DNA of 64,000 nucleotides, from assembly GCA_963695345.1 (NCBI GenBank), contig OY968769.1, positions 736,001 to 800,000 of the forward strand. The letters run 5' to 3'. The notes below the pieces were generated by a model. It ran no database searches. It was not told the DNA's origin and worked only from the letters and a program-made list of their open reading frames with translations. Of this stretch, positions 12,001 through 40,565 are shown in pieces. Positions within the stretch are counted from its first letter, which is position 1; each line of letters starts with the position of its first letter. Made by a program: the position numbers and the translations under genes. The DNA comes from an uncultured Methanomassiliicoccales archaeon. Its GTDB lineage: Archaea > Thermoplasmatota > Thermoplasmata > Methanomassiliicoccales > UBA472.

Positions 12001-15000
12001 CGAATCGCTGCCCAGCCAGGAGACCGTGACCGACGGCGTCGCGAATATGGATCCGCTGCCCGGGGAGACGATCAGGACCGTCGGTTCGCCCGAGTCCACG
12101 GTGAACGTGGAGGTGATCCGGGCCCAGTTCATGGCGCCGTCGTACGCCTTCACGTCGAAGGTGTGCATGCCGTCCGGGAGACCGGCGAACGTCGCGTTCG
12201 GTGAATCGGAAAGCTCGGTCCAGGCCTGTCCGTCAATGCGGAACTGGTAGCCGGAAATGCCAGAAGTAGGGTCGGAAGAGGACACCCGGACAGTCACTGA
12301 TGAGGTGACGTAGGCCCCTTCCGACGGACTGATGATACCGAGGATGGGGATATAGGTATCTACGATGAAGGTGACCGAGGCGGTGGCTTCGTTGCCCGCC
12401 TTGTCGATGCACTTCGCCTCCGCGCTGTGCGGACCTTCTGCTAGTCCGGTAAAGTCGTGGCTGATCGCCTGGGTGGTGGCGGACCAGGCCCCGCCATCGA
12501 TGCGGTATTGGTATCCGCTCAGCCCGGCGGTGGCGTCGTAGGCGAACCAGATGAGCTTGACGGTGGCACTGTCGGAGTTGAATCCCATCGCCGGGGAGGT
12601 GATGGACATCTCCGGGGCGGTGGTGTCGACGACGAACGTCACGCTCTTGGTGATCGAGTTGTTGGCATTGTCGTAGGCGACGATCTCGACGGTGTGCGTT
12701 CCGTCCCAGGTGGAGGTGAACGTGAGCTCGGTGTCGACGGTCATATCGCTCCAGTCGCCGCCGTCGATGCTGTACAGATAGCCCTGGACGCCGGACGTGA
12801 GGTCGGTGGCGTTCCAAACGACGTGGACGAGGGCGTTGCCCAGGAACGCGTTCTGCGCCGGGGACAGTATCGTCAGTACCGGCGGGACGGTGTCGACGAC
12901 GGTGAAGTTCAGCGTGTCGATGGCCAGGTTGTTCGCGTGGTCGATGACCTTGACGACGAACGAGTGGTCGCCATCGCGCAGACCGAGGAAGGTGTGGCTG
13001 GTGGAACCGGTGATCGAGGACCAGGCGCCGCTGTCAAGCTTGTAGTAGTAACCGGCGATGCCTCCGGTGGCGTCGCTGCCCTCCCAGACGACGGTGAGGG
13101 CGGTCTCGTTCGTGATCAGGTCCGGCTCGGGCGAGGTGATCTGGACGGTCGGGACGGAGGTATCGACGTAGAACGTGACGGTCCGGGTCACGGTGTTGCC
13201 GATGTTATCGTAGGCCTTGACGCTGACCGTGTGCGAGCCGTCCGCCAGACCTTCGAAGACATGGCTGTAGACCAGCGATGTCGCCGGGTAGCTTTCCGAA
13301 TCGATCTTGAACTGGAAGCCGAGGAGACCGGATGTCGGATCGCTGCCGGCCCAGGTCACGTTGACCGTTGACGACGGTGAGTAATATCCACCCGACGGGG
13401 AGGTGATGGACAGTGACGGCGCCGTCGAATCGACGATGAAATTGACCGAGATGGTGGCGGTGTTGCCGGAGCGGTCGATGCCCAGGACGTCCACCTTGTG
13501 GCTGCCGTCCGACAGCCCCACGAAATTGTATGTCTTGGTCATGCCCAGTGCGGACCATCCGCCGTTGTCGATGCGGAAGCGGAATCCCTGCAGGCCGGAG
13601 GTGTTGTCGCCGCCGTCCCAGGTGACGGTCATGCTCTGGAGCAGGGTCATCGTACCCTCGGCAGGCGTGGATATCGACAGGTATGGTGCGGTGGTGTCGA
13701 CGGTGAAGCTGACCGAGGCCACAGCAATGTTGTTCGAGTTATCCAGCGAACGGACGTATACCATGTGCACGCCGTCGGCCATGTCGGTGAACAGGTTGGT
13801 GGTGGCGTTGTCGATCGGCGACCATTCGCCGTCATCGAGGCGGAACTGGAATCCCTGCAGGCCGGAGTTCAGGTCGCCGCCGGTCCAGTCCACCCTCATG
13901 GAGGTGACGCTGGAATAGATCGTTCCGGTCGGGTAGGTGATGGAAATGGATGCCGGGACGGTGTCCACGGTGAAGTTCCGGCTGACCAGCCGGACGTTGT
14001 CGGCACTGTCGAAGACCTGTACCTCGACTATGTGCATGCCTTCCGCTAACGACGTGTACTGACGGGAGGCGGTGAGGCTTGATGCCGACCAGGCCTGTCC
14101 GTCGACGCGGAACTGGTAGCCCTTGATCGGGGAGGAAGCGTCGGTAGCGGTCACGTTCACCGTGACCGTCGAGGCGTTGAGGAATGCGCCTTCTGACGGG
14201 ACGGTTATCGTTACCATCGGCGCGGTGGTATCGATGACGAACGAGACGGTCGCGTTCTCCACCAGGCCGGCCAGGTCGAACGCCTGGACGGTGAAGATGT
14301 GGGCCCCGTCCTCCAGGTCGCTGAGGGTGATGTCGTTGAAAATGGAGATCGATGACCATTCGCCGTCATCGAGGCGGCAGCGGAACCCGGTCAGGCCGGA
14401 CCCGTTGTCGCTGCCGGACCAGATGAACGTGACCTGGTCGGTGTCGGACAGGAAGTCCTGCGCCGGCGAGGATATCGTGACCACCGGGGCGTAGGGATCG
14501 ACGCGGAACGTGACGGTGGCGGTGACGTAGTTGAGCGCCTTGTCCAGGACCTTCACCTCGACGGTGTGTGTGCCCTGGGAGAGGGCCGGATAGTTGAACG
14601 AGGAAGAGACGTTGATACCGCTCCATTCGCCCCCGTCAAGACGATACTGGTAGCCGAGCACGCCGCAGCCGGCGTCACCACCGGTGGTTACGACGGTCAC
14701 GGACGAGGTGTTAACCCAGTCGTTCTCGGCCGGGAAGTCGATGGCCAGCGTCGGAAGCGTCAGGTCGATGGTGAATGTGACCGAGGAGTTCTGGGAATTG
14801 TTGGCGATGTCGAAGACCTTCACATATAGCGTGTGCGAGCCTTCGCCCAGTCCGGTCAGGTTGATCGAGGGGGAATTGTTCAGTTCCGACCAGTCCCCGC
14901 TGTCCAGTTTGTACTGGTACCCGGCCAGCCCGGTGCCGGCGTCGCTGCCGGTGCAGGAAACGGTCACGGAAGATGTGTTCAGGTAGCTGTCTTCGGCGGG

Positions 15001-16356
15001 CGTATCGATGGCCAGGCTCGGAGCTGTCGTGTCGACGATGTACCAGACGGACGCTGTGGCGTTGTTGCCAGCCCGGTCGAGGACCTTCACATCGACGGTG
15101 TGATTGCCGTCGAACGCGCCCATCATTATGGTGGTCTGGGTCCCGGCGCTGTCCCATTCTCCGCTATCGATCCGGAACAGGTAATGATCGATGCCGGAAC
15201 CGCTATCGCCAGCGGTCCAGATTATCTCCACCCAGTTATCGCGCGATATGGTCCCGTTGGACGGGGTAAGGATAGATATCGTCGGATAAACGGCATCATT
15301 GGTGTAGACCGATACCGATGCGCTATCGGGGCTGGCAGTATCGGCATGGGCCACCAGGTAGTAGGTGTAGTTGGAAAGGTAGTGAAGGCCATTGTCCGTG
15401 TACGAAACGTCGTCCGGGCCGAGCGGGATCGAGGCGTTGTCGCCGGTGTCCGAGATGCGGTAGAGGGTAAGTCCGGTAACCGGTGAGCCGATGGTGTAGT
15501 TGAGGCCGGTCCAGGTGAGATGGACCGAGCCCTGTCCGACCACGGCGCTGAGACCGTAGGGCGAGGCGACCAGGGCGACCAACGGATACCCGTCGATGGC
15601 AGCGCCCGGTCCCGCCAGGAGATAGTCGGAATCTATTATGCTGTCGTGATCGAGATCCACCGATGGCAGGTCGCTCCAGTAGTTGCCGATGGAAGCTGAG
15701 GACCAGAGGTCGCTGGTGCCGTCCTCGTATGCCTGGGCATGTTCGATGTCGTAAACGGAGCTCGCGCCGTTGTTTCCGGTGAGGGCGTTGCCGTAGAAGG
15801 TGTTTCCCGACGAGCCGTTGGAGACCAGTCCGAAAGAACTGCACTGGGTGACTGTGTTGTTGTATACAGTGGTCGAGGTGGAGTTGCGGATCAGAACGCC
15901 GTAGCGGCACTCGCCGATGGTGTTGTTGACAATCAGGACGTGACTGGTGTTGAACAGGAATATGCCGGCACCTTCACCGAAGCCAATGGACAGGAGGGAG
16001 GCGTTGGTAAGGTGGGAGTTGGTTATGATCAGGTAAGAAGAGGTGTTGCCGATGGAGATGGCGTTCGAAGCGCCGGTGGCGTTTATTTCGAGGTTCTGGA
16101 AAATGTAAGGGTTGGCGGATGAACCATCACCCGGCCAATCGTTCAATGCCATCAGGTCGGCCAGGTCGGTGTTGTTGTGGACGACGATGGGGCCGTGTTC
16201 GAGCATCGGGGATGAGAGGCCCTGGGCAGACACCTGTCCGGCCGGCCCGATGAACAATGCTCCGGCGAGCGAGACCATCATCACCACTGCAAGCAGTGCG
16301 GGGATGATGCTCCTCTTTTTGTCATTGAACGAACGCTTGGTAATCCTGTCGATCAT
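1..16356 (-). CDS. Giant secreted/surface protein (>5,400 aa, C-terminus outside the window): signal peptide, NosD-like right-handed beta-helix, FN3, then >50 tandem ~88-aa Ig-like repeats
   Basis: ORFs 7954..16362, 6984..8312 and 440..7663 and the open frame from ~545 to 1 all carry the same repeat (P.l.I.sP..g......v.v.W...D..SG..GY.Y.iD...WS......tf..L.dG.H.v.v.a.D.agN....v.F.vD). They join through single-base insertions at ~8312, ~7781 and ~546, plus a compensating +1/-1 pair at ~5490-5535. ATG is at 16356, followed by a hydrophobic leader (SIIPALLAVVMMVSLAGALF). N-x-S/T sequons are abundant. Confidence 0.85.
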
Positions 16357-16550
16357 AGGCAACCCTTCTAAATGTTAAAAATGAGGTCGGAATATTAGAA
16401 GGGGGTAAGTCCGGTTACCATTCCTGATAACGATTTTTTCGTCGTTGATAACACCATCCATACGTTCGAATCTATCGAACTAGGAGGTTGACGATATGCG
16501 GAAAATGGAAGGAGAAGACCTCCAAGAAATCGCCGATATTCGCAATTCAT
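16047..16550. repeat. Copy 1 of a ~500 bp imperfect direct repeat (5' end and upstream region of the giant gene)
   Basis: Aligns with 24681..25180. Blocks 16174-16220 = 24805-24851 (47 bp) and 16240-16311 = 24871-24942 (72 bp) are identical. Confidence 0.9.
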
Positions 16551-16979: not shown

Positions 16980-17276
16980 TCACCTCGTTCTTTTCACCCC
17001 GAAGTCCCTATTGTATTTGTCCAGCATGCTCGCCACTTTCATCGAGGCGGATTGGCCGCCGGCACCCAGTGGAGAACTGCTGATCGGGAATTCAAAATCG
17101 CAACGTGGACATCTAACGTTGGCGCACCCTTTGATCGCATGAGGACACCCTGCACAGGCAAATGTGCGAGCATAGAGGAGACTGAACTTGTTGTTGCATT
17201 TGGGGCAGGATAGTACCTCTGCCGTCGCCCTTCTAAGTCTCGGGTCAATGCCTAATTCGTTCTGCTGACCGATCAT
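16980..17276 (-). CDS. Small Cys-rich metal-binding (Zn or Fe-S) protein, 98 aa
   Basis: This is the C-terminal part of ORF 16980..17570. ATG at 17276 follows an SD-like GAAGGCGA. Motif: CPKC...C-x2-C-x6-C-x4-CPRC-DFEF. Confidence 0.7.
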   Translation of the reverse strand: MIGQQNELGIDPRLRRATAEVLSCPKCNNKFSLLYARTFACAGCPHAIKGCANVRCPRCDFEFPISSSPLGAGGQSASMKVASMLDKYNRDFGVKRTR

Positions 17277-17382
17277 ATCGTTCGCCTTCATTTCACTATA
17301 ACAACGAATGTAAAGAAAGAATTGCCGGGGGACGGGGGGAGAGGCGTGCACCCCGGGGGGATGTCGTTTTAACGGCGCAGGC

Positions 17383-18480
17383 CTAGCGCGGCTTTCTCTC
17401 CTGCCATTCCTTAGTCTCGGCATAATCGCGGGTCGCCTTGACCATGGCAAACAGGTTCGCCGCTGGCGTGGAGACAGGCAGTTCGCATCCCGGGCCGACA
17501 ATGTACCCGTGCTCGCATTTCGTAGCCGCAACGTCCAGATGGTCCCTGGTCGTCTTATACACCTCATCATAGGTGTTGATCATGAACTTAGCTGGCTCGA
17601 TGTTGCCCACGATCATTGTGGACTTCCCGAAGATGTCGATGACCTTCGGTAACGGCGTCCGGTAGTCGAAGTTGATGGCGAACGAACCTGGCACTTTGGC
17701 CCACAATTTCGCATTGTCGGTCTGGTTCCCGCAGGGGTGGCAGAGGAAACCGGCAGGAGCTCCTGCCTTCAAGGCACCCTCCCTAACCTTGATCAGCGAC
17801 GGCAACGCGAACTGCTCGAATTGCTTGTCGCTGATCAGATCGTTCGAGTCCGTCGGACCTCCATCAAAGAACATTATCGGGCCGACCGTGGACAGTATGT
17901 ACTTGACCTCATTGATGAGGAACTCTGACACGCTGTTTAGAACCTTATGCACCAGATCCGGTTTCTTCAGCATCCAGATGAGCATCGTCTCCACGCCGAT
18001 GATGTTCCCGGCGTTCGAGAAGGCGTCACCGGCCTGGACGGTGGGGTTCTTGTAGCCCTCGGGATAAGTTTCGAGAACATACCTGGCTCCACGACACCAA
18101 TCTTCGATCTCTCCCGCCGTGGCGGGGTCTGGGGTCTGCATCTTGTCGACTGCGTCCGGCGTTTCGATCGGGTGCCGCACGATGAGCGGGCTCTGAGCCC
18201 TCGAATCAGCTCCAGGGTAAGAGAGTTCTCCCCCGTATTCGGCAGCTCCGGCGCAAGCGTGGCCGAACAACGGCCCGGTGTCGAATCCGTAAAGCTCCTG
18301 GACCGGAAGGAACGCTTTGGCGAACTTAACCGGATCCTTGTAGCATTCACCGATGGTCAATCCCTTGTGCTGCTTGGATACGAAACCCATGGCGAATGCC
18401 CCGGCCCCCGGACGGTCTGCCCATCCGGTCTGGAAGAGCGACATCATCCTCTCGATGGGGGTCATAGTTTCCTTGAACAT
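17383..18480 (-). CDS. URO-D/MtaA-CmuA family methylcobamide methyltransferase, 365 aa (paralog 1)
   Basis: N-terminal MTPIERM..L....ADRP, Zn-thiol motif H-x-C (LCHPCG), C-terminal GPGCELP, IVGNIEP and NLFAMVKA. The ATG at 18480 lies 1 nt after the corrinoid gene stop, preceded by GGAGGTG. Confidence 0.9.
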   Translation of the reverse strand: MFKETMTPIERMMSLFQTGWADRPGAGAFAMGFVSKQHKGLTIGECYKDPVKFAKAFLPVQELYGFDTGPLFGHACAGAAEYGGELSYPGADSRAQSPLIVRHPIETPDAVDKMQTPDPATAGEIEDWCRGARYVLETYPEGYKNPTVQAGDAFSNAGNIIGVETMLIWMLKKPDLVHKVLNSVSEFLINEVKYILSTVGPIMFFDGGPTDSNDLISDKQFEQFALPSLIKVREGALKAGAPAGFLCHPCGNQTDNAKLWAKVPGSFAINFDYRTPLPKVIDIFGKSTMIVGNIEPAKFMINTYDEVYKTTRDHLDVAATKCEHGYIVGPGCELPVSTPAANLFAMVKATRDYAETKEWQERKPR

Positions 18481-18481
18481 T

Positions 18482-19138
18482 TCAAGCACCTCCGAACAGC
18501 TTGTTGATCTCGGTGACAGCGACCTCGCCATTGTCAGCGGTGGTATCAGCACCGATCTGTTTGGCGAATTCCTTGTTAATCGGTGCACCTCCGATCGCCA
18601 CCTTGAACTGGTCACGGACTCCGCGGGACTTCATCAGGTTGATCGCGTCCGTCATGCCGGCCATCGTTGCCGTCATTAGAGTGCTCATTCCGATCAGGTC
18701 CGCCTTCTCCGCCTGTGCGGTGTCTACGATCTTCGAGATCAACACGTCCGCACCCAGGTCATGAACATCGTATCCGCCGACACCCAATAGGGTGGCCACT
18801 ATGCCCTTTCCTATCGAATGGACGTCGCCTTCGACGGTGCATATGACCACCTTGCGGGCCTTTGCGCCCGATGTCTCTTTCTTGAGGTGCGGTTTCAATA
18901 TGGCCAAGGCAGCGTTCATGGCGGCCGAGGCGGCCATCACCTGTGGTAGATAGTACACCTTCTGCTCGTACAGGACGCCTACCTCCTTCATCCCTTCGCT
19001 CAACCCGTGCAGAATCGCCGTCTTAGGGTCGTAACCGTCATCCAAGACCTTTTGGGCGGTCTTTGCGGCCACAACTTCATCGAAGTCGATGACGCTCTGC
19101 TTAAGCTCTTTCAATAGCTCAGATTCTTGTGTCTTCAT
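18482..19138 (-). CDS. Methyltransferase cognate corrinoid protein (MtaC/MtbC/MtsB-like), 218 aa
   Basis: N-terminal helical cap (GLSEGMKEVG..Y....YLPQV), cobalamin motif EGDVHSIGKGIV, DLIGMSTLMTATM and KVAIGGAP. Confidence 0.95.
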   Translation of the reverse strand: MKTQESELLKELKQSVIDFDEVVAAKTAQKVLDDGYDPKTAILHGLSEGMKEVGVLYEQKVYYLPQVMAASAAMNAALAILKPHLKKETSGAKARKVVICTVEGDVHSIGKGIVATLLGVGGYDVHDLGADVLISKIVDTAQAEKADLIGMSTLMTATMAGMTDAINLMKSRGVRDQFKVAIGGAPINKEFAKQIGADTTADNGEVAVTEINKLFGGA

Positions 19139-19154
19139 TTTTTCACCTATCCAT

Positions 19155-19766
19155 TCAGCTCTTTTTTAACAAGATTGGACACACTTGTTTCCTTGCGCAT
19201 CCGTTGATCACCGAAGCAACGCTAAGGTAGAATGCCAGAACTCCCACGATCACCGCGAGCACGCCAATGGCGGACAGTAGAGTCGCATCGGTGGTCAGCG
19301 CATGAATGCCGACCATCATGAACATCACCGACGCCAGCCCGATTATGATGGTCAGCAGGCGGACCGGGAAGAACGTGGTAATTATGGCCAGCATGGCCAC
19401 GAACAATGCGAAAGATATCATGAAGGTTGCGAACTCCGCTGATGTCGGCGGACTGACCAAGCCTGTGGCGGGCAGGATGTTGAGCGCCACGAACGACCAG
19501 GCGAAAACCATTATCATTCCGAACGCAAAAAGCCCGAACTCGTTCCCCTTCTTCCAGGAGGTCAGGGCCACGATCAGAAACCCGAACCCGCAGAAGAACA
19601 CCACAGACAGGACCATGCCGCTGACCGGGTAGTAGTTCAATGAGGCGAAGGCGAACACTATGGTCAGCCACCCCAACAATGCCGATCCCAACGACAGCGA
19701 ATCCGCTGACGTATCAGTTATTTCGAATTTCCGTTCATCCGCTACGCTAATGCTTGCATTTTCCAT
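19155..19766 (-). CDS. Divergent GPR1/FUN34/YaaH (SatP-like) membrane channel, 203 aa
   Basis: About 200 aa with six hydrophobic helices. GNEFG..AF resembles the family GNTFG..AF, and C-terminal AFYLSVA..IN also matches. The NPAPLGL signature is replaced by DSLSLGS. Confidence 0.7.
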   Translation of the reverse strand: MENASISVADERKFEITDTSADSLSLGSALLGWLTIVFAFASLNYYPVSGMVLSVVFFCGFGFLIVALTSWKKGNEFGLFAFGMIMVFAWSFVALNILPATGLVSPPTSAEFATFMISFALFVAMLAIITTFFPVRLLTIIIGLASVMFMMVGIHALTTDATLLSAIGVLAVIVGVLAFYLSVASVINGCARKQVCPILLKKS

Positions 19767-19801
19767 TTTCCTTTCCTCCTAGTTCTACGACTTACCACTA
19801 A

Positions 19802-20899
19802 TTATTTTCTGCAGTGGTCTTTCCATTCTGGCGATTCGGCATAGTCCCTTGTCGCCTGGACCATCGCGAAGAGATTGGCTGGCGGGACCGAGGATGGCAT
19901 TTCGCATCCCGGTCCGACCGCGTATCCTCGATTGCATTTGGTTGCAGCCAAATGTAGGAATTCCTTTGTTGTGGAATAGATTGAGTCGAAATTCTGAGAG
20001 ACAAACGAGCACGGTTCGATGCTGCCCATGACGGTCGAATCATTGTGGAACTCCTCCACCACCCTATTGATAGGCGTCCGATAGTCGAAATTGATATACC
20101 TGATGTCCTTCAGCTCTTTCCATAATTTGATGTTCCGGGTCTGATCGCCACACGGGTGGGAATTGATCCCGATCGCTCCGTGCTTCATCGCGCCAGTGTG
20201 GTATTCCCTGAGATATGGCAGTACAAAATACTCGAACTGTTTCGCACTTATGAAATCATTCGACTCGGCAAGGCCTCCTTCGAACAGGACCATTGGTTCA
20301 AGCGTCTCCACCAAATACTTCGCGTAGTCGATTTGGAATTCGACCACCTTGTTCAGCAATTTGTATACGAGATCGGGGCTCTTGATCATCCAGGTGAGAA
20401 CGGTCTCCATTCCCACGATGTTGACCACCCAGGTGAACGGCGTCCCCACAACGACGGACGGGCTCCGGTACCCATCTGGATATTCCTTGAATACATGGCG
20501 GCAGGCCTCGACGATCTTCGGGACCTCACCGACGGTGCTCGGGTCCGGGACGGCCACTCGGTCCACATCCTCGGGAAGATTGATGGCGTGGTTGACGATG
20601 AAAGGAGAACAGGCCTTGGACCTTTTACCGGGATAGGCCAAGGTTCCCCCGAACTCGGCGTTACCAGCGCATGCATGTCCAAATAGCGGACCTGAGTCGA
20701 ATCCGAAGAGCTGCCAGATGGGCAGGTATGCCTTGGCGAAGGAGAGCGGGTTGGCATAACCCTCCCCCACGGTCAGTCCATGGGTCATTCTAGGGACCAT
20801 CCCCATCGCGAACGCAGATATGCCGGGCCTGTCCGCACACCCCGTTTCATAGAGCGAGTTCATCCTCTCCATGGGGGTCATGGTCTCTAGGAAGGACAT
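19802..20899 (-). CDS. URO-D/MtaA-CmuA family methylcobamide methyltransferase, 365 aa (paralog 2)
   Basis: MTPMERM..L....ADRPG, NSHPCGDQ (H-x-C), GPGCEMP and NLFAMVQA. Colinear with the 17383..18480 protein. SD GAGGTGA lies upstream. Confidence 0.9.
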   Translation of the reverse strand: MSFLETMTPMERMNSLYETGCADRPGISAFAMGMVPRMTHGLTVGEGYANPLSFAKAYLPIWQLFGFDSGPLFGHACAGNAEFGGTLAYPGKRSKACSPFIVNHAINLPEDVDRVAVPDPSTVGEVPKIVEACRHVFKEYPDGYRSPSVVVGTPFTWVVNIVGMETVLTWMIKSPDLVYKLLNKVVEFQIDYAKYLVETLEPMVLFEGGLAESNDFISAKQFEYFVLPYLREYHTGAMKHGAIGINSHPCGDQTRNIKLWKELKDIRYINFDYRTPINRVVEEFHNDSTVMGSIEPCSFVSQNFDSIYSTTKEFLHLAATKCNRGYAVGPGCEMPSSVPPANLFAMVQATRDYAESPEWKDHCRK

Positions 20900-20927
20900 C
20901 GCGTCACCTCTTCTCTCTTCATAGTCA

Positions 20928-21080
20928 CAAATACCTCCGTATTTGCGATATAATGATTATGACCCAGAATGGGGCTTAAGGGCTCTTTCGTCGAAACTTG
21001 AGAGCACGGCCTCATAGCGTTGTCATTGATCATTCGGACGGAGGTCTGATATTTCATTTGAAATACAAACGTAATACAAA
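20928..21080. promoter_or_regulatory. Divergent promoter region with candidate AATAC-containing operator sites
   Basis: Inverted repeat CAAATAC-ctcc-GTATTTG at 20928-20945. Direct repeat AATACAAA at 21062 and 21073 (11 bp period). Both sit next to TATA-like tracts. Confidence 0.4.
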
Positions 21081-21115
21081 TGATATATATCTTTCTCCTA
21101 CCTTTGGGGGAGCAG

Positions 21116-21403
21116 ATGACAATAAACGAGAAGAAACGAAGGGGTGAAACCCAGATCGTTAATCTCCGGATGCCCTATGGACTCGTGGCCGAGATTGAGA
21201 ACATCGTGGATCGGAGAATGTTCAAATCACGATCGGATTTCATCATAGCCGCGGTTCGTCACTACATCGATTATATGTCCTACGATGAGATCACTGGCAA
21301 CAAGGGTCGTGAAGAGATATTGAAGAGGATGTATCTCCAAGGCCAGCTGAAGGGATCGAGCATACCTATTCCTGAGGATAACGGGCAAGATGAAAAAGAG
21401 TAG
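21116..21403 (+). CDS. Ribbon-helix-helix (CopG/Arc/MetJ) transcriptional regulator
   Basis: IVNLRMPYGLVAEIENIVDRRMFKSRSDFIIAAVRHYI matches the RHH pattern. ATG at 21116 follows GGGGAG. Confidence 0.85.
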   Translation: MTINEKKRRGETQIVNLRMPYGLVAEIENIVDRRMFKSRSDFIIAAVRHYIDYMSYDEITGNKGREEILKRMYLQGQLKGSSIPIPEDNGQDEKE

Positions 21404-21910: not shown

Positions 21911-24569
21911 TCAAAGATCGACAAGCGCCTTCTGTATCGCCTCTTCCAGCTGTTTCATTGTGTACGGTTTCGGCAGAACGCCCTTGAAACCGTAGCTGAT
22001 GTAGTTCGCCGTTATCGGGTCGTTGGAATAGCCGCTGGAGACGATGGCGTTGATGTTGTCGTACTTTTCCTGGAGCCGCCTTATCGTCTCCCTGCCGCCG
22101 AGCCCGCCCGGTATGTTGAGGTCCATGATGACCACGTCGAACGGGTCGCCGGACGCCTCCGCCTTGGCGTAGAGGTCGATCGCCTCCCCTCCTTCCCTGG
22201 CCGCCACCACATAATGTCCCAACGCCTCCACCATCTTGGACAGGACGTCCAGGATGCCCTCGTCGTCGTCCATTATCAGCACTTTGGCCGGCCGGTCCGG
22301 ACCGTGCTTCGGCCTGGCCGCCGGGGCGTTGACGCATTCCGACCAGGCCAGCAGATAGACGTCGTAGTTCGAGCCCTTGGACGATGTGCCGATGACCATG
22401 AACCCGTCGTGCCTACGGATGATGGAGTTGGCGATGGCCAGGTCGAGACCCTGCTTCTCGTCGAACTCGGAACCGTGGGACCGGGGCTTGTCCCTCTCCG
22501 ACCTCGGCGATATCCAGGTTGGCGCCTCCAGCTTGACGACCACATATCTGGCGGGGGCGAGCGATGTCGCTTTCGCAATGGCAACTTCCTGATATGATAA
22601 TGTGATTTCGAGGACGATCCCGGAGGGTGCGCTGGCCAGCGCATTGGAAACCAGGTTCGAGAACGCCTGGCCGATCTGGACCTCGTCAGCGTTAACATAG
22701 TACTGCTCATTCTCGGACGAGACCCGGACCTCCACCCGGGACCCGTCTGAATATCTTACGCCAATATCCTCCAGCAGGTCCAGCACGGAAACGCAGCTCC
22801 TTACCGGTTCCCCGCCCCGGGCGAATGTCAGCAGCTGGTTCGACAGGTCCTTGGCCTTCATGGCCGCCTGCCTAACATCGTTGAGGCTGGCCTTCCTGCG
22901 TTCCTCGTCCAGCGGCATGTAGCTGAGCATCTCGACGTTGCCCAGAATCGTTGTCAGGACGTTGTTGAAGCTGTGAGCCATGCCCCCGGCGAGCTGCCCT
23001 ATCGAATCCAGGCGCTGCGCCTCGGAGACGGCCTTCTGCAATCGGACATCGTCAGTTATGTCCCGGAAGACGATCACATAACCGATCACCTGGCCGGCCC
23101 GGTCCCTGACTGAAGCGGAGTTGTAGGAGAGGTCGCGGCGGCCGCTAAGGTCGACCAGGATGCCTTTCCGTTCGGATGTGGAATCGTCATCACGGGAAAC
23201 CCAGTAGGATAAGACGGGCTTCTCCATGATCGGGTCAAGGATGGGAAGGACGTCGTTTATCTTCTGACCGGTTATCGTTCCCGTAAAGGAGCATTTATCC
23301 TCGGCGATCTGATTCGCCAGCCGGATGGTCCCATCTATCTCGGTGACGATGACGCCTTCCCCGATGCTGCAGATGGTGACGTCCAACCGTTCCTTTTCCT
23401 GGAACAGCCTCTCTTGCGCATCTTTGGTCCGTTTCACTTCTTCGGCAAGACGTTCCGTTACCTCGGTGAGGTCCTTGGTCCTCCCCCTGACCTTTCCCTC
23501 AAGGTCGTTGGCGTATGATCTTAGTGCCTCGATCATTCGGACCTTCTGGATAGAAAGAAGGGAAAGGTTGGCGAGCGAGTGGAACGGCCCCTTCCGGTCC
23601 TTTGTGAACCACTCTGGGTCGGGATGTCCGAAGATCATAGCCCCGATGATCTTTTCGTCCTCTATCAGGGGGACGACCACCCATGCCATGTCGCCATGCA
23701 CCAATGTCTGAGGTCCTGGTTCCATTTTGTCGATGAGCGTTTCGATCTCGATATCCGGCGGTGTCCCTTTTTGAGCGATCCTCACCATCTTGCCTGATGG
23801 GTCAAGATCGTAAACCAGAGCGGAAGATGCCCTGCAACCGGTCCACGGCGACCCCACATATGCTCTCCAGCGAATCTGCGGCCAGTTCGGAACCGATGAT
23901 CTTCCGGGAAACGTCGTAGAGGGCTTCCAGCTCCTCCGCCCTTCTGGCCAGCTGGATCGTGCTCTCCTTCTGTTCCGTCACGTCCGAGATCATCTCCAGG
24001 ACGTATCTTTCCGAGCCGGTCTCATCCGCTATCGGAGTGGAGACCCGTTGGACCCAGATCGGTTTGCCGTTCTTGCGGGAGAATCGGGCGACACCCTCGT
24101 GGAAAGCGGGGGTCGACCTCGGCTCGGGGATGATGTCCGTCGAGTGCACCACGAAATCCTTCAGGTTGGAACCGATGAGCTCGACCGAGCTGGTGCCGAG
24201 GATCTCGTTCGCCTTGAGGTTGGCGCGGATAATGAACCCGTTCTCATCGCTCTCGATGATGCCGTAGGGAGCACGCTCGATCATGACACGGATACGCCGC
24301 TCGCTCTTGCGGAACGAGGTTTGGGAGGACCTCAGGTTGTCAAAACCCTTCTTGACCAGGTAATAGAGAAGAAGTGATGTCAGAATGATGAAGGCCAGGC
24401 CCTTGACGACCGAGATGTTGTACCTCGTGGATGGGTCCTGGACCATGATCCAGACTAGGTTGTCCGATAGGAATATCCAGATGGCTGAAACGATGAAATA
24501 GACCAGCACTATCTCCAACGGCCGTTCGAACAATCTGCGTCTCGCCGGATCTGCGTTCTTCTTCTCCAT
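21911..24569 (-). CDS. Membrane-anchored hybrid sensor: 2 TM-PAS-GAF-PAS-HisKA-degenerate HATPase-REC
   Basis: ORFs 23802..24569 and 21911..23857 join through a one-base indel at ~23831. H-box GGMAHSFNN. C-terminal receiver VLIMDDD...DVVIMDLNIPG...VSSGY...PKPY. Confidence 0.85.
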
Positions 24570-24680
24570 TTCCCTTCTCCTGGTCTTTACCGATTGTTAC
24601 ACTATGGGAGGTCATGGCATAAAAAGACGATAGCAGAGTAATTGGAAGGGATAGTTGTAAGTGATTGATAAGGAATATTT

Positions 24681-25180
24681 TGCCGATGGAGATGGCGTTC
24701 GAGGCGCCGTAGGCATTTATTCCAAGTTTCTGATTAGAAAAGGATTGGCAGATGAGCTATCACCCGGCCAATTGTTCATGGATATCAGGTCAGTCAGTAG
24801 TGTCGTTGTGGACGACGATGGGGCCGTGTTCGAGCATCGGGGATGAGAGGCACATGGCAGACACCTGTCGGGCCGGCCCGATGAACAATGCTCCGGCGAG
24901 CGAGACCATCATCACCACTGCAAGCAGTGCGGGGATGATGCTTCCCTACTGTTACTGAAAGAACACTTAGTTACCTGTCGATCATTAGCAACCCCCTGAA
25001 CGTTAAAATTGGTGCTTGCGCATTAGAGGGGGGTAAGTCCGATTACCCTTTCTGATGATACCTATTATATCGTTTGACGATACCGACCATACAACCGTTA
25101 TTATCGAACTGGGATGTTTAGAATAACGAAAAATGGAAGGAGATGGTTCCATGAAAATTGCCGATATATTGTATTCACTA
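24681..25180 (-). pseudogene. Copy 2 of the direct repeat: decayed 5' fragment and upstream region of the giant surface gene
   Basis: Homologous to 16047..16550. On the minus strand it reads ATG ATC GAC AGG TAA (stop at codon 5), and homology ends at ~24681. Confidence 0.85.
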
Positions 25181-25477
25181 GGGATTATCCTGAATGGAGA
25201 TTTCTCTCAATTTGGGGTTGCTTCAAGATTATTCTGAATCATTTTAATAAATTGAAATACGTCTCTACCTGGATGGGTGGAAAATATCCCACAAACATTG
25301 TAATAAAAAAGAGGATACCTCGATACTGTATTTGATGAAATAATTTCTTCCATTGTCTTATGCACTCTTTCCTGATACCTATTATTGATTCGGCGCAGAG
25401 AATATCTCCCAACTGGATTTCAGATCACAATATTGATCTGCTAATATTACAGTTAGTCCTCAACTCGAGGGGAAGTT

Positions 25478-27103
25478 ATGAGTGTCGTAGAGGAAATTAG
25501 AAGTGAGGTTCGAACAATAGCATCAGATAGGAATCTGAATGACGATCGAGCTTTCGGTTATTGGTTCCTTGAGGGGTTTGAGGATTTTAGTCCAGAAGAG
25601 GCGGAGTCTTGCATTGTTGATGGTCCCTGGGATGGGGGAAGAGATGCAGTATTTTTCGATGAAGATGAGTCTATTTTGAAAATATACCAGTTTAAATTCT
25701 CCAATTCTATTGATTATGTAAAAAAAGCATTTGCCGATATTCAAAAGGCTCTAATAAATGAAAAAGACAACGCGTCTCGTGCAAAGCAGGTACAGTTGAT
25801 CGTAGTATCATTGGTTGATTCAAATCAGGATATTCTAAGAATCGAGAGATCAGCAAGAACTCGAGCGAGAAAATGGATCAAGAAGCAAAATCTTGCTACT
25901 GAAATCGATCTGAAACACTATGATTTGAATGAATTCAAAAAAATGCTAGATAGAATTCAAGGAGTGAACCTTTCTATCAGTTTTAAATCCAAACCAGTTA
26001 TCGACGGAAGAGATCTGATCGGACTAATTAATGCAAATGAGCTTAGAGAACACATAAATGATGATAATATTCTTGCTTTTAACATAAGAAAATTCCTTGG
26101 ACTCAGAAAGGGATCAGTAAATTATCAGATTAGGCAGACTCTCGAGAATGAAGATCTCAGACCAAAATTTTGGAATCTGAATAATGGAATCGTTACACTG
26201 TGCACAAATGGTAGAGAAGAGAGTTCATCAGAAAATAAATGGAAATTTGAAAACTTTACAATAGTAAATGGGGCTCAAACAATCAACACTATTTCAAGAT
26301 TCCTCGATGATTCACCAACATTAAGAGACGATCCAATTTGGGTAGTGGCCAAAGTCATTGTAGTCGACGATACTAATATTGAAGAAGCTCTCATATTAAC
26401 CAAAACATCTAACAGTCAAACAGCGACAAACGATAAGGATCTAAGAGCAGTAGATCCGACACATAAAACACTGAAGAGATGGTTTGATCAATACTATTCT
26501 TTCAAATACTTAACAAGAAGAGGAGAAAAAGTAAAAAGAGACACTCCATCGATAACAATGAAGGATTTGGCACAGTCATATGTTGCGTTCTCTATGGATA
26601 TGCCAAATGTTTCATTTTCACAACCAGGAAAGATATTCGAACATGCGAATTTTTATTCCGTTGTGTTCCCTGACTCTGTCATATCTATTCTCGACAAAAC
26701 AGGAGGAGAGGACAAGCAGAGAAATTTCATTCTCCAGAGATTAGTACCAACATTATTACTATGGAAGATACGCCCCTATGTTAAACAAAAAGCACAAGAT
26801 TCTAATGATCTTAAGTGGAAATCTGTTTCTTATCATATCTTGTGGTTATATGGATGTATGTTCAAAGAAATGAAGATTGAAGATTGGAAGAAGATACATT
26901 CTAATCTGGATTTTATCTTTGCTTCTACTATTGAATTATTCTATGAATATCTTCATAACATGACAGAATTCAACCCATCTATTGAAATTCCTAGAGATCT
27001 TAAAAACACCAAGATTATGGAAGAGATAAAAAGGAGCAAGATCTTTGAGAAACCTGGATTCAAATCGATAATTATAAAAATTGATTCAATAAATAAGGAA
27101 TGA
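25478..27103 (+). CDS. AIPR family protein (abortive infection phage resistance-associated)
   Basis: N-terminal DGPWDGGRDA...IYQFKF. Core NIRKFLG...VNYQIRQTL...FWNLNNGIV...IVNGAQT...SNSQT...DLRAVD. The gene is AT-rich relative to the rest of the window. Confidence 0.9.
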   Translation: MSVVEEIRSEVRTIASDRNLNDDRAFGYWFLEGFEDFSPEEAESCIVDGPWDGGRDAVFFDEDESILKIYQFKFSNSIDYVKKAFADIQKALINEKDNASRAKQVQLIVVSLVDSNQDILRIERSARTRARKWIKKQNLATEIDLKHYDLNEFKKMLDRIQGVNLSISFKSKPVIDGRDLIGLINANELREHINDDNILAFNIRKFLGLRKGSVNYQIRQTLENEDLRPKFWNLNNGIVTLCTNGREESSSENKWKFENFTIVNGAQTINTISRFLDDSPTLRDDPIWVVAKVIVVDDTNIEEALILTKTSNSQTATNDKDLRAVDPTHKTLKRWFDQYYSFKYLTRRGEKVKRDTPSITMKDLAQSYVAFSMDMPNVSFSQPGKIFEHANFYSVVFPDSVISILDKTGGEDKQRNFILQRLVPTLLLWKIRPYVKQKAQDSNDLKWKSVSYHILWLYGCMFKEMKIEDWKKIHSNLDFIFASTIELFYEYLHNMTEFNPSIEIPRDLKNTKIMEEIKRSKIFEKPGFKSIIIKIDSINKE

Positions 27104-27169
27104 TTTGTTCATAGCACTGGTCCAGGCATCGAATTGCTTCGGGGCTTACAGGATCTGTGAATCTAAACC

Positions 27170-27823
27170 TCACCAAATATGAGGGAAGAGCCTGTAATTG
27201 ACCTTCTTCAATACTCAGTATATCCTTCCAGTTCCTTGTTGAGCATCTTCTCCTCACCGATTATCCTCCCCATCAGGAGAACAGTGACCGCTAAACCGAC
27301 AAACACCCCAAATACCGAGCCGAGCAGCAACGGTGCACCGATCAGCATCAGGATCGCCCCTAGGTACATCAGGTGCCTGACGAAACGGTATACGTCGGTG
27401 GAAACAACCGTCTACTACTTTGCTCCTGGATCCGGACCAACGGTGACAGGAACGTATTTTCCGCGTATGACCAGAAGAAGAGATAGTACGATCCGACCAG
27501 CCAGGAGCGGAAAGACCGAAGACCATCCATACCGTCTGGCATCCAACGGCATATCAATTATCAAGGAGGTGAACCAGACGACAGTCCAACGACGACGCAC
27601 CTGTCCAGCCTTTCTCGTTACCCGTGCCGGGCTTCTTGTATCGTTCCTCCAGAAGCACCGGGTCCTTCCGATAAAAGTAATAGATCGCGGAATAGCAGAG
27701 CAGTATGAGCCAGATGCTGAACGCCCACCCCTCCGACCAGGCCAGGTCCCAGGAGAGTAGGATGATCAGTACCGGGAACAGCAGAATGGACAGCGATGAG
27801 CCGATGACCTTGGTGACCATCAC
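27170..27823 (-). pseudogene. Isoprenylcysteine carboxyl methyltransferase (ICMT/PEMT) family membrane protein, disrupted
   Basis: Pieces in different frames: KDPVLLEERYKKPG, PLDARRYGWS, YAENTFLSPLVRIQ, VVSTDVYRFVRHLMYLGAIL, GEEKMLNKELEGY and YRLFPHIW*. Several frameshifts and apparent deletions. Confidence 0.75.
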
Positions 27824-28088
27824 TCTACCGAAGCGGTAACGGCATTGGGTTGCTAGTCATTGTTGCCAGAACGTTCAGATTGCACAAGGATTACGACAAA
27901 ATTGACATACTATTGATCCCCGAGGGATCCTTCATCGGGTCGGAACTGCTTCCTCTTAGACGGCTCCAGTTCGAACCCCTGCGACTAGGAAATTACAGCC
28001 ATCCCCATTCGGTTAATCCTAACGAAATGATGAGATCTCTCGGGCTTTCTCCCCTCCTCCTCGGTTGGGTATCTCCGTAACGCTGAGA

Positions 28089-39531: not shown

Positions 39532-40565
39532 TCATTTCAGCAGAGAGTTGACCACCCGGACCGCCTCGTCCGCGTCCTTGGCGAAGCCGTCGGCGCCGAT
39601 GGCGCTCCACAGCCCCTCGACGTTGTTGAACGCGTAACCGCCCACCACCACCTTGATGCCTTCCAGGGTGGATTCGGCGCGTATGTGCCGGATGAGCACC
39701 CTGACGCGCTTGATGTTGTAGCCCATGGTGACCGATACCAGGAGCGCCTTGGCCTTCCGCTCCTTCAGCATGGAAATCACGTCCGCGTGCGGGGTGTTCG
39801 CGCCCAGATAGCTGACGTCCCATCCGTCCATCTCCAGGAAGTCCGCCACCATGCGCGAGCCGAGGCCGTGCATCTCGTTGCCCACGCAGGTGACCACCAG
39901 GTTTCCCTTGCGGCAGACCTGGCAGGTCATCGCCAGGCTTACCTGGGACAGCACGTGATGGGCGAACTCGGTGGCGTAGTGTTCCTGGGCCACGCTTATC
40001 TGGCCCAGCTGCCAGCGCCGGCCCACCTCGTACTGCGCCGGCTGGATGATGTTGATGTAGATGTCCTTGGGCTGGATCCCCTGGGCGACGGCGTTCCGGA
40101 TGGTCTCCTGGGCTCCGGCCCTTTCTCCCGCCAGCACCTGCTCCACGTAGGTCTTGGCGATGGTGCCCATCTCGACGCTGTCGTTTATGAACGGGGCTTC
40201 CGACTCCGGCATGGTCGGATATTGTTCGATGGTGAGCCCCAGGATGCTGTCCACCTGCTCGGCGAATGAACCCTTGAGCTCGCCGCGGCATTGCCTCCGG
40301 ATGATCTCCAGCTTTTCCTGGACCACTCCGGAGGGGACACCGGCGTGGATCAGCACGATCTTGGACCAGGCGATGTAGTTGACGAACATCGGCGGGCAGT
40401 TGATGTTGGCCGCATCGAACAGGAACGCGATCTGTTTCCGGGTATCCTCCAACCAGGGATCGTTCGGCTCCCCCGGTAATGGGCAAAGATGTCCGGCCGC
40501 AGCTTCTTGTGGTCCGCCATGACATTCAGGGCCAACCGTTCGATCGATCCATATGGGTCATCCAT
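39532..40565 (-). CDS. Cobalamin-binding protein with CarH-type cap and B12-binding domains and an N-terminal helical domain (~344 aa)
   Basis: YEVGRRWQLGQISVAQEH (W-x9-EH), CVGNEMHGLG (E-x-H), YLGANTP and VVVGGYAF. The N-terminus (ORF 40350..40565) joins if one G is added to the G5 run at 40470-40474. Confidence 0.85.

Follow-up and report, generated by a model that had tools for sequence, protein, structure and literature searches.

The locus encodes an accessory corrinoid-dependent operon that, in a reading we hold with about even confidence, most likely passes the methyl group of an S-methyl compound into methyl-coenzyme M and from there into methane. It lies in a 64,000-nt window (genome positions 736001–800000), the whole stretch of DNA that was analyzed. 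The host belongs to a Methanomassiliicoccales-type order and is a methanogen that reduces methyl compounds with H2; its genome contains McrA together with MtaB ×2 (282 and 1849 kb), MtmB ×2 (488–491 kb), MtbB (492–494 kb), and MttB (498–500 kb) with in-frame TAG. All of these classical MT1 genes are >250 kb away from the operon and none occurs within the window, in agreement with the proposal of a sequence-only reading of this DNA that the genes form a self-contained corrinoid module lacking a classical MT1. That reading had also considered that the corrinoid protein might be the partner of an MT1 at another locus, which is disfavored because every classical MT1 is adjoined by a corrinoid gene of its own.

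Gene organization of the operon

Five co-oriented genes on the reverse strand lie opposite an RHH regulator gene, with gaps of 35, 16, 1, and 106 nt for the starts chosen here. The ORF listing and a sequence check placed the six genes and their gaps, as well as the H-x-C...C motif of the twin methyltransferases and the DxHxxG motif of the corrinoid protein, at the positions reported by the sequence-only reading. The first gene, MT_up (19802..20899), encodes a 365-aa MtaA-fold zinc methyltransferase of a non-A, channel-linked subclade, and is followed by genes for a divergent six-helix channel of the AceTr/SatP family (19155..19766, 203 aa), a corrinoid (cobamide) carrier protein of the MtmC/MtbC/MttC type (18482..19138, 218 aa), a second MtaA-fold zinc methyltransferase, the 'A-type' MT_dn (17383..18480, 365 aa), and a Cys-rich zinc-ribbon protein (16980..17276, 98 aa). 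The full ORF of MT_dn spans 17383–18615, and the ATG at 18480 yields a 365-aa protein beginning MFKETMTP; for the Cys-rich gene (full ORF 16980–17570), the ATG at 17276 agrees with the start of the homologue P0204. The 1-nt junction between the corrinoid and MT_dn genes reads GGAGGTGCTTGAaATG, with GGAGGTG standing 8 nt ahead of the MT_dn ATG, and MT_dn appears to be translationally coupled to the corrinoid gene.

The regulator gene (21080..21403, forward strand) probably starts at the internal ATG 21116, which is preceded by GGGGGAG and gives a 95-aa protein. Its product matched the Pfam model RHH_1 at 6.7e-4 and 20.0 bits, just below the cut-off of 20.5, and the CdrS/NikR-type RHH models of NCBIfam weakly. 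The region between regulator and operon (20900..21079) is AT-rich, e.g., GATATAATGATTA, and is presumed to be a divergent promoter region.

The corrinoid protein contains B12-binding (9e-23) and B12-binding_2 (2.7e-20) domains of Pfam, scored 199.5 bits against TIGR02370 (cut-off 215.3), and has MttC (7XCN, 6.8e-43) as its closest solved structure. In its translation, the DxHxxG motif corresponds to D105-V-H107-S-I-G110. The operon contains no gene for a corrinoid reductive activase, and the closest of four RACo homologues in the genome is ~94 kb away.

The two methyltransferases form a separate family

Both methyltransferases belong to the URO-D family (Pfam; 6.3e-42 for MT_up and 3.1e-40 for MT_dn) and are 53–54% identical to each other. 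Against TIGR01463 (cut-off 235.4), MT_up and MT_dn scored 70.5 and 89.4 bits, respectively, whereas the two ordinary MT2s of the same genome scored 327 and 261 bits; across the NCBIfam models, the operon enzymes reached 56–89 bits against cut-offs of 235–600. The zinc ligands H248-x-C250...C332 (MT_dn numbering) did not vary among the 18 aligned family members, nor among the 34 sequences obtained once the sister group was included, and they align with the HxC...C motif of Methanosarcina mazei MtaA (PDB 4AY7). The AlphaFold2 model of MT_dn (pLDDT 94.2) was closest to the MtaA structures 4AY8 and 4AY7 among PDB entries (TM 0.79–0.87). The operon enzymes thus share the TIM-barrel URO-D fold and zinc ligands of the methylcobamide:CoM methyltransferases (MT2) MtaA and MtbA, with a sequence identity of just 19%.

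In the phylogenetic tree, the family formed a separate clade outside canonical MtaA/MtbA (support 100), a placement that is relative to the members present, which included no named MtsA, MtpA, Sdm/Mlp, CmuA, Mec, or Odm/Vdm sequences. Another split with support of 100 parted the family from a group of MtaA/MtbA-type and corrinoid-fused Mts-type proteins from three Methanosarcinales genomes. Because of their scores far under the cut-offs and their own clade, the family methyltransferases are not considered ordinary MT2s, and the nesting within MtaA/MtbA that would have spoken against a new system was not found. MT_up grouped with P0001 and P0003 in one subclade (support 100), and the non-A clades have longer stems. 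The A-type copies of G000 and M. luminyensis were 66% identical, as against just 49% for MT_up and the second M. luminyensis enzyme, and we describe MT_up as what appears to be the faster-evolving paralog.

Accessory proteins

The channel passed both NF038013 AceTr_1 (69.8 bits, cut-off 50) and Gpr1_Fun34_YaaH (PF01184; 3e-7, 30.7 bits, cut-off 25), and was homologous over its full length to the SatP acetate-succinate channels (5ZUG, 2e-12; 5YS3, 3e-10). The genome encodes four AceTr paralogs, of which this channel scores lowest. The N-terminal ANPAPLGL stretch of the two canonical AceTr paralogs encoded elsewhere is replaced in this channel, which has SADSLSLGSALLGW where they have ANPAPLGLMGFG. 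Its residues L31/I85/A145 align with F17/Y72/L131 of SatP, which we take to be the pore constriction, and the protein is probably a specialised AceTr paralog. None of the papers we consulted describes an AceTr gene inside a methyltransferase operon. The subfamily comprised 10 copies in 8 genomes, five of which were outside the module; since it is not module-specific, the channel may serve an unrelated purpose, such as acetate uptake.

The Cys-rich protein weakly matched Zn_ribbon_4 and MJ0042, and its seven Cys are shared by all 18 aligned members. Its family is present in 198 of the 201 genomes of the order, and a paralog (37% identical) lies at genome positions 1835296–1835607. A complex model with MT_dn scored 0.61 (best control, 0.01), and the model places the protein over the methyltransferase zinc site.

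Distribution and synteny

Close homologues of the methyltransferases were detected in 5 of the 201 genomes of the order, including M. luminyensis (G051), always as two copies accompanied by the corrinoid, channel, and divergent RHH genes. Homologues of the regulator (42–49% identity) divergently adjoin the module in G051, G029, G078, and G037 and on the metagenome contigs L044 and L047. The metagenome scan returned nine loci, six of which matched the family at 48–86% identity (L043–L048). The corrinoid–A-type methyltransferase pair was kept on five of these six contigs, the sixth (L048) being a fragment of the methyltransferase gene alone, and the channel was found on three (L043, L044, and L045). 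L046 contained the corrinoid gene and a single methyltransferase amid housekeeping genes, including mcrC. In L043, from a close relative, the channel, corrinoid, methyltransferase, and Cys-rich genes were retained in this order and the upstream methyltransferase was reduced to a 19-aa remnant, which could equally reflect a decaying module.

The search for synteny that the sequence-only reading had proposed gave a divided result: the set of RHH, corrinoid, two methyltransferase, and channel genes recurs in four other genomes and on metagenome contigs, but its order is shuffled, and only the corrinoid–A-type methyltransferase and channel–second methyltransferase pairs persist. The twin methyltransferases emphasized by that reading are likewise the rule in the five genomes without being obligatory, as L046 and L043 illustrate. 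The corrinoid protein and the A-type methyltransferase make up the invariant core; the second methyltransferase travels with the divergent channel and can be lost.

Comparison with known systems

Corrinoid-based units that dispense with a classical MT1 and rely on MT2-like enzymes are already known from MtsAB, MtpCA, and the SdmABC/type-1 mlp clusters, so the design has precedents. The MtpC/MtpA/MtpP system of Methanosarcina acetivorans resembles the operon in its operon-associated transporter, but MtpP belongs to the MFS family, unlike the AceTr channel, and Mtp has one methyltransferase versus the two family-specific ones here. In Mtp, the MT2-family enzyme adjoining the corrinoid gene is described as a methylmercaptopropionate-specific MT1 unable to use CoM, with an anionic thioether as substrate and the CoM-methylating step supplied separately (bioRxiv 10.1101/548461). 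The operon enzymes are, however, split (support 100) from the corrinoid-adjacent MT2-like genes of three Methanosarcinales genomes in our tree, which did not include MtpA. MtsA/MtsB of Methanosarcina barkeri is described as a corrinoid protein plus one bifunctional zinc MT2-like enzyme, performing both half-reactions with dimethylsulfide or MMPA (bioRxiv 10.1101/548461). The minimal locus L046 is likened to it by layout, whereas the full module adds a second methyltransferase, a channel, a regulator, and the Cys-rich protein.

Proposed function

In the UroD superfamily, S-methyltransferases have been described as retaining His-Cys-Cys and O-methyltransferases as having the Cys exchanged for another residue (PMC10418091). 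With all three zinc ligands invariant here, an S-methyl donor is thus favored (Se or As being less likely) and methoxy compounds are disfavored, including the O-methylated carboxylate that the sequence-only reading had allowed for, although this rule neither tells S from Se/As nor gives the direction of transfer. Our best guess is an anionic methylthio-carboxylate, e.g., methylmercaptopropionate (3-methylthiopropionate). In the core, made up of the corrinoid protein and MT_dn, the latter would play the part of MtpA or MtsA, coordinating the sulfur of the thioether at its His-Cys-Cys zinc and handing the methyl group over to the Co(I) corrinoid. Coenzyme M would next take the methyl group from methyl-Co(III), a step for which MT_up, MT_dn, or either of the two ordinary MtaA-type enzymes could be responsible. 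The channel, beside the second methyltransferase, may let in the anionic substrate or let out the product, a thiol-carboxylate. Regulation of the operon would fall to the RHH protein, and the seven-Cys protein may sit on the catalytic face of the methyltransferase, serving as an accessory subunit or as a regulator.

Among cultured relatives, M. luminyensis is an H2-dependent methyl reducer with methanol and methylamines as its reported substrates (PMC5688252), and our literature search returned no report of its growth on methylated thiols. Methanomethylophilus alvi, with other 'MtsAB homologues', is reported not to have used dimethylsulfide (PMC10673518).

An unlikely alternative is assimilatory scavenging in the style of SdmABC (Methanococcus voltae) or type-1 mlp clusters, in which the enzymes would strip methyl-selenides or -sulfides of their methyl group, here a by-product, to supply biosynthesis with Se or S. 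The architecture matches: these clusters are described as co-directional genes for at least two MtaA-like His-Cys-Cys zinc proteins and a corrinoid protein, with no classical MT1 or H4-folate methylase, and methyl-S or methyl-Se metabolism has been proposed for them by Kountz and Balskus (PMC10418091). A patchy accessory distribution also fits a conditional nutrient role. However, the operon lacks the Ram/RACE gene required by those authors' definition of a true cluster, and the source lists the type in three methanogen genera, all Methanococcales (PMC10418091). No SelD above the cut-off was detected in the host genome (best 82.5 bits vs 125) and aragorn flagged no tRNA-Sec among 34 tRNA genes, which gives no indication of a need for selenium; the AceTr channel and RHH regulator further distinguish the operon. 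Moreover, any methyl-corrinoid of a methyl-reducing methanogen can go to CoM, giving an energy role at no added cost.

Improbable, too, is that these are spare MT2 isozymes and a spare corrinoid protein for the known methanol or methylamine pathways, with no new substrate. The MtaA fold and zinc site, the methylamine-type corrinoid protein, and the several MT2 isozymes often present in methanogens are compatible with this. Arguing against it are the low model scores and separate clade in a genome that already has two canonical MT2s, the dedicated regulator and channel, the corrinoid genes already accompanying all classical MT1s, and the restriction to five genomes, though methanol/methylamine use is general in the order.

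Transfer in the methylating direction, from methyl-CoM or methyl-corrinoid onto a thiol, sulfide, or metalloid for detoxification or volatilization with product leaving through the channel, seems very improbable. Corrinoid/zinc methyl transfers are reversible, AceTr channels can conduct anions outward, and ClMlp2 was assayed in this direction, from methylcobalamin to selenide (PMC10418091); however, no positive evidence points to it, the cell would forfeit an electron acceptor, and conserved linkage to a corrinoid carrier is usually seen in systems for catabolic entry. An O-demethylase for methoxylated acids or aromatics, or a CmuA/mec-like halomethane system, can be largely dismissed: URO-D-fold MT1s do serve such systems (bioRxiv 10.1101/2021.08.30.458270; PMC10418091), but the zinc ligands point away from O-methyl substrates, CmuA belongs to TIGR01463, which the operon enzymes fail, the six genes (Pfam) include no MtrH/pterin-type methyltransferase, PocR kinase, or mec-cassette cation antiporter, and the closest pterin-binding gene is ~100 kb away.

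If the S-methyl reading is true, this methanogen probably gains methane from a sulfur-methylated compound through a rarely found operon.

Operon layout and genomic surroundings

An ORF and family-model scan placed five genes in the same orientation on the minus strand at 16980–20899 of the window. MT_up (19802–20899) encodes a 365-aa URO-D-family methyltransferase (6e-42) and is followed by a channel gene (19155–19766; 203 aa; AceTr_1 score of 69.8 bits, cut-off 50), a corrinoid protein gene (18482–19138; 218 aa, with both B12-binding domains and a DxHxxG motif at residues 105–110), the second methyltransferase gene, MT_dn (17383–18480; 365 aa; URO-D, 3e-40), and a gene for a Cys-rich protein (16980–17276). 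The start of the last is best set at 17276, giving 98 aa, because a 92%-identical homologue (P0204) begins there. The intergenic gaps are 35, 16, 1, and 106 nt; a single base separates the corrinoid stop from the MT_dn start, and GGAGGTG lies shortly 5′ of the MT_dn ATG. An RHH regulator gene (21080–21403, plus strand; probable start 21116) diverges from the operon. When ORFs, domains, and junctions were re-read, the gene set, orientations, gaps, and motifs described in the sequence-only reading were right in every checkable detail.

The operon is surrounded by genes for PAS histidine kinases, an AIPR protein, and giant surface proteins. Two giant ORFs on the minus strand (440–7663 and 7954–16362; 2407 and 2802 aa; GC 0.61–0.64) abut the operon; the translation of the second contains many ~100-aa repeats with recurring 'GYQYRIDGGEWS'-like motifs, and both presumably encode surface or adhesin-like proteins. 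The AIPR (abortive-infection-like) gene (25478–27103, plus strand) lies a few kb past the regulator and two PAS/histidine-kinase genes, in a low-GC stretch within 24000–28000 (0.42–0.45 versus 0.56 for the genome) that may be an island. Horizontal transfer of the module itself, judged by composition, was unsupported (GC 0.54 versus 0.56 genome-wide). A B12-binding gene at 53597–54298 (minus strand, 233 aa) was rejected as part of the operon; it adjoins MacB/FtsX-type ABC transporter and PAS-kinase genes, not methyltransferases. The genome search gave another B12-binding match at ~39559–39903 (minus strand), beside a response-regulator/histidine-kinase gene. The 343-aa ORF translated there had no Pfam match, and the domain may sit in an overlapping 306-aa frame.

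Host genome and its classical methyl systems

In guts, wetlands, and paddy soils, Methanomassiliicoccales rank among the major methyl-reducing methanogens; methanol and methylamines are the substrates known for them. The window is part of one 2.56-Mb contig of the host genome (G000), which encodes McrA, two MtaB, two MtmB, MtbB, and MttB, the amine enzymes with in-frame TAG, as well as two canonical MT2 (methylcobamide:CoM methyltransferases) that pass TIGR01463 with 326.9 and 260.8 bits. Because McrA, classical MT1s (substrate:corrinoid methyltransferases), activases, and canonical MT2s are all encoded, the host is a methyl-reducing methanogen of the order of M. luminyensis. The classical MT1 genes are confined to 282, 488–500, and 1849 kb, in agreement with the earlier observation that none lies at the operon. 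Since each of them adjoins its own B12-binding gene, the operon corrinoid protein probably does not serve a distant MT1.

Two further loci were recorded in the host. At G000:C1:850110–857321, ~50 kb past the window end, the best RACo-type activase (653-aa frame, 322 bits) is found ~6 kb from a pterin-binding gene (81.6 bits), and the pair may represent another methyltransferase system. At G000:C1:149912–151645, a URO-D-family gene, split into ORFs of 194 and 219 aa that overlap, lies directly 3′ of a corrinoid gene; this may be a frameshifted MtsAB-like pair.

Fold, zinc site, and phylogeny of the methyltransferases

The structure model of MT_dn (pLDDT 94.2) was best matched by M. mazei MtaA (4AY8, TM 0.82/0.87; 4AY7, TM 0.79/0.86) at 19% identity. 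MtaA was also its only PDB sequence match (4.5e-6), with H-P-C aligned to H-I-C and PGC to PGC. Model and alignment together reveal the URO-D TIM-barrel fold with a His-x-Cys...Cys zinc site, as in the MtaA/CmuA family, and these zinc ligands do not vary among the family members (18 of 18), nor when the sister group is added (34 of 34). The operon enzymes nevertheless score far under the cut-off of every curated MT2 model: 70.5 (MT_up) and 89.4 (MT_dn) versus 235.4 for TIGR01463, 62 and 56 versus 400 for the MtaA_Meth model, and 69 and 63 versus 600 for the MtbA model. An ESM Atlas search gave generic URO-D clusters only. When 1.84 billion representatives were searched with a profile, 65 proteins fell below 1e-30, only two exceeded 480 bits, and the next reached 259 bits.

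Three trees were built. Tree 1 (88 rows) was drawn from the 150 best matches, taking only those up to P0099 and of 320–449 aa; tree 2 (76 rows) added 28 of 29 URO-D ORFs from loci of Methanosarcina, Methanimicrococcus, and Methanolobus genomes, with one 228-aa fragment left out; and tree 3 (25 rows) was made with a careful search. The operon methyltransferases belong to one clade with support of 100 in all three trees (19 rows in the first two), comprising three subclades: the corrinoid-adjacent A type, which includes MT_dn, the MT_up type, and the second methyltransferase of the M. luminyensis group. In tree 2, a 100-supported split separates canonical MT2-type and corrinoid-fused Mts-type proteins from the side holding this family, an order-wide URO-D-like protein (the type found at 1833653 in the host genome), and a sister group. 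The operon enzymes thus lie outside the canonical MT2 clade formed by the MT2-type proteins of the host, Methanosarcina, Methanimicrococcus, and Methanolobus, and the question of whether they nest within MtaA/MtbA, raised earlier, is answered in the negative by this split and by the TIGR01463 scores.

The sister group, traced in part with the single protein P0185 as query, is made up of single-copy Methanosarcinales proteins together with others from uncultured bacteria. Its named members come from Methanosarcinales, uncultured Chloroflexota, Tectomicrobia, Thermoleophilia, and Syntrophorhabdaceae, not from Clostridia or Methanococcales. In a Methanolobus MAG (L086, 5935–8700), the Methanosarcinales member of this group precedes two corrinoid protein genes; no corrinoid gene adjoins the member in Methanosarcina sp. 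T3 or Methanimicrococcus hongohii (L083 and L076).

Within the family, the A-type copies of the host and M. luminyensis are 66% identical, versus 49% for MT_up and the second M. luminyensis enzyme, and the stems to the non-A subclades are longer in the 25-row tree. The A-type copies are therefore the better conserved. Grouping the non-A enzymes as one ortholog group gave an AU p of 0.53 in the same tree.

Distribution and gene order of the module

Some methyltransferase match at 1e-20 was present in 60 of the 201 genomes of the order, while close matches (389–863 bits) occurred in only five, always two per genome: the host, M. luminyensis (G051), G029, G078, and G037. The next-best match among the 201 genomes reached 94 bits. 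A contig locus scan with MT_up alone found no relative, and a metagenome scan yielded nine loci, of which six match at the level of the family. Among sequencing runs listed for the 4.4-kb operon stretch there was no RNA run, and six DNA runs contained small portions of it.

Gene order in the four other genomes runs from the divergent RHH gene through the corrinoid gene, MT(A), and the channel to the second methyltransferase, MT(B), whereas in the window the divergent RHH gene is followed by MT_up, channel, corrinoid, MT_dn, and Cys-rich protein. Since the order differs, what is kept is two units, namely corrinoid–MT(A) and channel plus second methyltransferase; the conserved synteny looked for thus holds for the gene set and for these units, and not for the overall order. 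Locus L043, with an 86%-identical methyltransferase, reads channel–corrinoid–MT–Cys; L045, at a contig end, reads channel–corrinoid–MT; L044 matches M. luminyensis in gene order; L047 reads RHH, corrinoid, and MT before its contig ends; L046 carries corrinoid–MT alone among housekeeping genes including mcrC; and L048 is a fragment. The pair of corrinoid gene and MT(A), 1 nt apart in the window, is kept in every locus found, the fragment L048 aside. Twin methyltransferases, as emphasized in the sequence-only reading, are not a constant of the module: L046 has a single one, and in L043 the upstream enzyme is reduced to a remnant of 19 aa.

The L043 remnant (within 1–1257), in this closest relative, is C-terminal and precedes the channel gene. 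The Cys-protein homologue of the same locus matches in two pieces (3734–3955 and 3961–4026), which suggests a break in the gene. In G078 and G037 (L041, 691–2802; L042, 6197–7252), one or two extra MtaA-clade genes directly follow the module; the one scanned scored 186–191 bits to MT2 models, under the cut-off. These genes may be the module's dedicated CoM methyltransferases.

Channel and corrinoid protein

The operon channel aligned with SatP over its full length (2e-12) and passed the AceTr/SatP family cut-offs (NF038013, 69.8 versus 50; PF01184, 30.7 versus 25), falling below the E. coli-type equivalog NF007941 (61 versus 297). It is one of four AceTr paralogs in the genome, two canonical (150 and 119 bits) and two divergent (31 bits for the operon copy, 35 for the other). 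At the N-terminal NPAPLGL stretch, which we take to be the AceTr family signature, the canonical paralogs read ANPAPLGLMGFG, and the module channels read SADSLSLGSALLGW or ASPDALGSMLLGW instead; the divergent subfamily has SxxALGxxLLGW at this place. Residues L31, I85, and A145 of the operon channel are aligned to F17, Y72, and L131 of SatP, presumably its pore constriction.

Ten copies of the divergent subfamily occur in eight genomes of the order, five in five modules and five elsewhere; every module in a genome has a divergent channel, and the subfamily is not exclusive to modules. The host's second divergent copy (G000:C1:338013–338774) shares 46% identity with the operon channel and is a solitary gene near an Lrp/AsnC-like regulator; similar stand-alone copies were seen in G029, G021, G072, and G101.

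The corrinoid protein combines B12-binding cap and Rossmann domains with DxHxxG and scored just under the TIGR02370 cut-off (199.5 versus 215.3). Its closest solved relative is MttC (6.8e-43).

A 7-Cys mini-protein as a possible partner

A word search with the Cys-rich protein found one homologue, and a four-sequence profile extended the family to 198 of 201 genomes, each carrying between one and four copies. Seven Cys are shared without exception by the aligned members (18 of 18), and no Pfam family covers the protein. The window copy is a paralog (37% identity) of the copy found universally, and a copy inside the module occurs only in the host and L043. The universal copy lies in an order-wide conserved cluster (G000:C1:1833653–1835607; also L072, L073, L074, and L075) of genes for a URO-D-like protein, DUF7479, a radical-SAM protein with an HMPTM zinc ribbon, the Cys protein, DUF169, and an AMP-binding protein. 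In at least 26 genomes besides the host, according to tables compared by eye, a Cys-protein copy lies within 5 kb of a URO-D-family match.

Complex modelling of MT_dn with the Cys protein gave a median score of 0.61 over three runs, which expresses model confidence and not a measurement, versus 0.01 for the best control. With the mark used, 58 of 80 solved complexes pass and so do 2 of 110 mismatched pairs; these rates are rough here, where our own alignments were used. Between runs, at least 75% of contacts agreed, and the partner had a pLDDT of 75 or more. The modelled interface on MT_dn covers residues 250–251 and 332 (zinc ligands), 163–173, and 212–216, i.e., the catalytic mouth. We know of no solved complex of MtaA with a small protein that the model could have remembered. 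The mini-protein is accordingly modelled as a possible partner of MtaA-like enzymes.

Comparison with known systems

Combining MT2-like enzymes with a corrinoid protein in place of a classical MT1 is an already known principle, represented by MtsAB, MtpCA, and SdmABC/mlp. MtsAB and MtpCA share the layout of an MT2-family gene adjoining a corrinoid gene without a classical MT1. Like the type-1 mlp/SdmABC clusters of Kountz and Balskus, the operon has at least two MtaA-like methyltransferases and a corrinoid protein, co-directional (gaps of 35, 16, and 1 nt versus ≤2 kb), and no H4-folate methylase within 20 kb, the only Pterin_bind matches in the genome being at 857 and 1617 kb. Unlike them, it has no Ram/RACE reductive activase; the four RACo_C_ter matches lie at 507, 850, 1851, and 2360 kb, the nearest ~94 kb away. 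Because the cluster has no Ram gene, it falls outside the mlp definition. The mec (dichloromethane) cassette, according to the available text of its description, places the sensor-regulator MecA/D, MtrH-type MecF, activase MecH, and antiporter MecJ beside MtaA-like genes (10.1101/2021.08.30.458270), whereas none of those domains is found among the six genes here.

What appears new, judging from the sequence trees, is a distinct, narrowly distributed methyltransferase clade apart from the canonical MT2 of the genomes included, together with an AceTr-type channel embedded in the operon, RHH control, and possibly a 7-Cys partner. 'MtsAB homologues' with substrates untried, and a lack of DMS use by Methanomethylophilus alvi, are mentioned in the available parts of earlier reports on Methanomassiliicoccales (PMC10673518, PMC7824343, PMC4153887). 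Borrel 2014, in the text available, mentions 'mtsAB' in M. luminyensis, which may or may not be the operon locus (PMC4153887), and the clusters described in the available text of Kröninger 2017 do not include the operon (PMC5688252). Our literature search found no publication naming this locus or the M. luminyensis accession WP_026068804, and none joining Methanomassiliicoccales, 'uroporphyrinogen decarboxylase', and corrinoid.

Proposed function

The operon most likely transfers the methyl group of an S-methyl compound to methyl-CoM. This reading follows from the rule that S-methyltransferases of the UroD superfamily have His-Cys-Cys while O-methyltransferases replace Cys (Kountz and Balskus, PMC10418091) and from the precedent of MtpA, an MT2-family protein that acts as an MMPA (methylmercaptopropionate)-specific MT1 and cannot use CoM, and of MtsA, which performs both steps, as stated in the available text of Fu and Metcalf (10.1101/548461). 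In O-demethylases, one or both Cys are changed to a carboxylate or non-ligand residue (PMC10418091); this OdmB/VdmB-type zinc sphere is absent here, His-Cys-Cys being invariant. Of the S- or O-methylated donors first proposed, the S-methylated ones are hence favoured, and the O-methylated ones disfavoured, with Cys kept in 18 of 18 members.

Under the S-methyl reading, the corrinoid–MT(A) pair is best read as a loading or bifunctional unit that can stand alone, as in L046, and the second methyltransferase with the channel would be an add-on, either a CoM-methylating partner or an enzyme for a second substrate. The AceTr channel suggests an anionic substrate or product, and a methylthio-carboxylate such as MMPA would fit, since it satisfies both clues, the S-methyl zinc site and the anion channel.

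Selenium scavenging as in SdmABC, which shares the layout of MtaA-like enzymes and corrinoid, is less likely: no SelD scored above its cut-off in the host genome, and aragorn flagged no tRNA-Sec, an absence that is not firm given that only 34 tRNAs were found. A broader proposal, to which we give little credence, is that the operon is the entry for an unrecognised substrate class in gut and wetland Methanomassiliicoccales, i.e., small anions methylated on a soft atom (methylthio-carboxylates, even methyl-arsenicals like dimethylarsinate), taken up via a re-purposed acetate-type channel, with the 7-Cys mini-protein as a new subunit capping the zinc site across the order's MtaA-like branch. Cultures of M. 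luminyensis are reported to demethylate dimethylarsinate, by an enzyme left unnamed in the available text (PMC10579292).

The analysis defines a new clade of MtaA-like enzymes, as far as sequence comparison goes, and flags a near-universal 7-Cys mini-protein as their possible partner. The existence of this orphan operon for methyl transfer, regulated and equipped with its own channel, suggests a further precursor of methane, probably an organosulfur acid, and cultured M. luminyensis has the same module, so the question is directly testable. If such a precursor is used, sulfur cycling, and possibly that of selenium or arsenic, would be tied to methane in these archaea.
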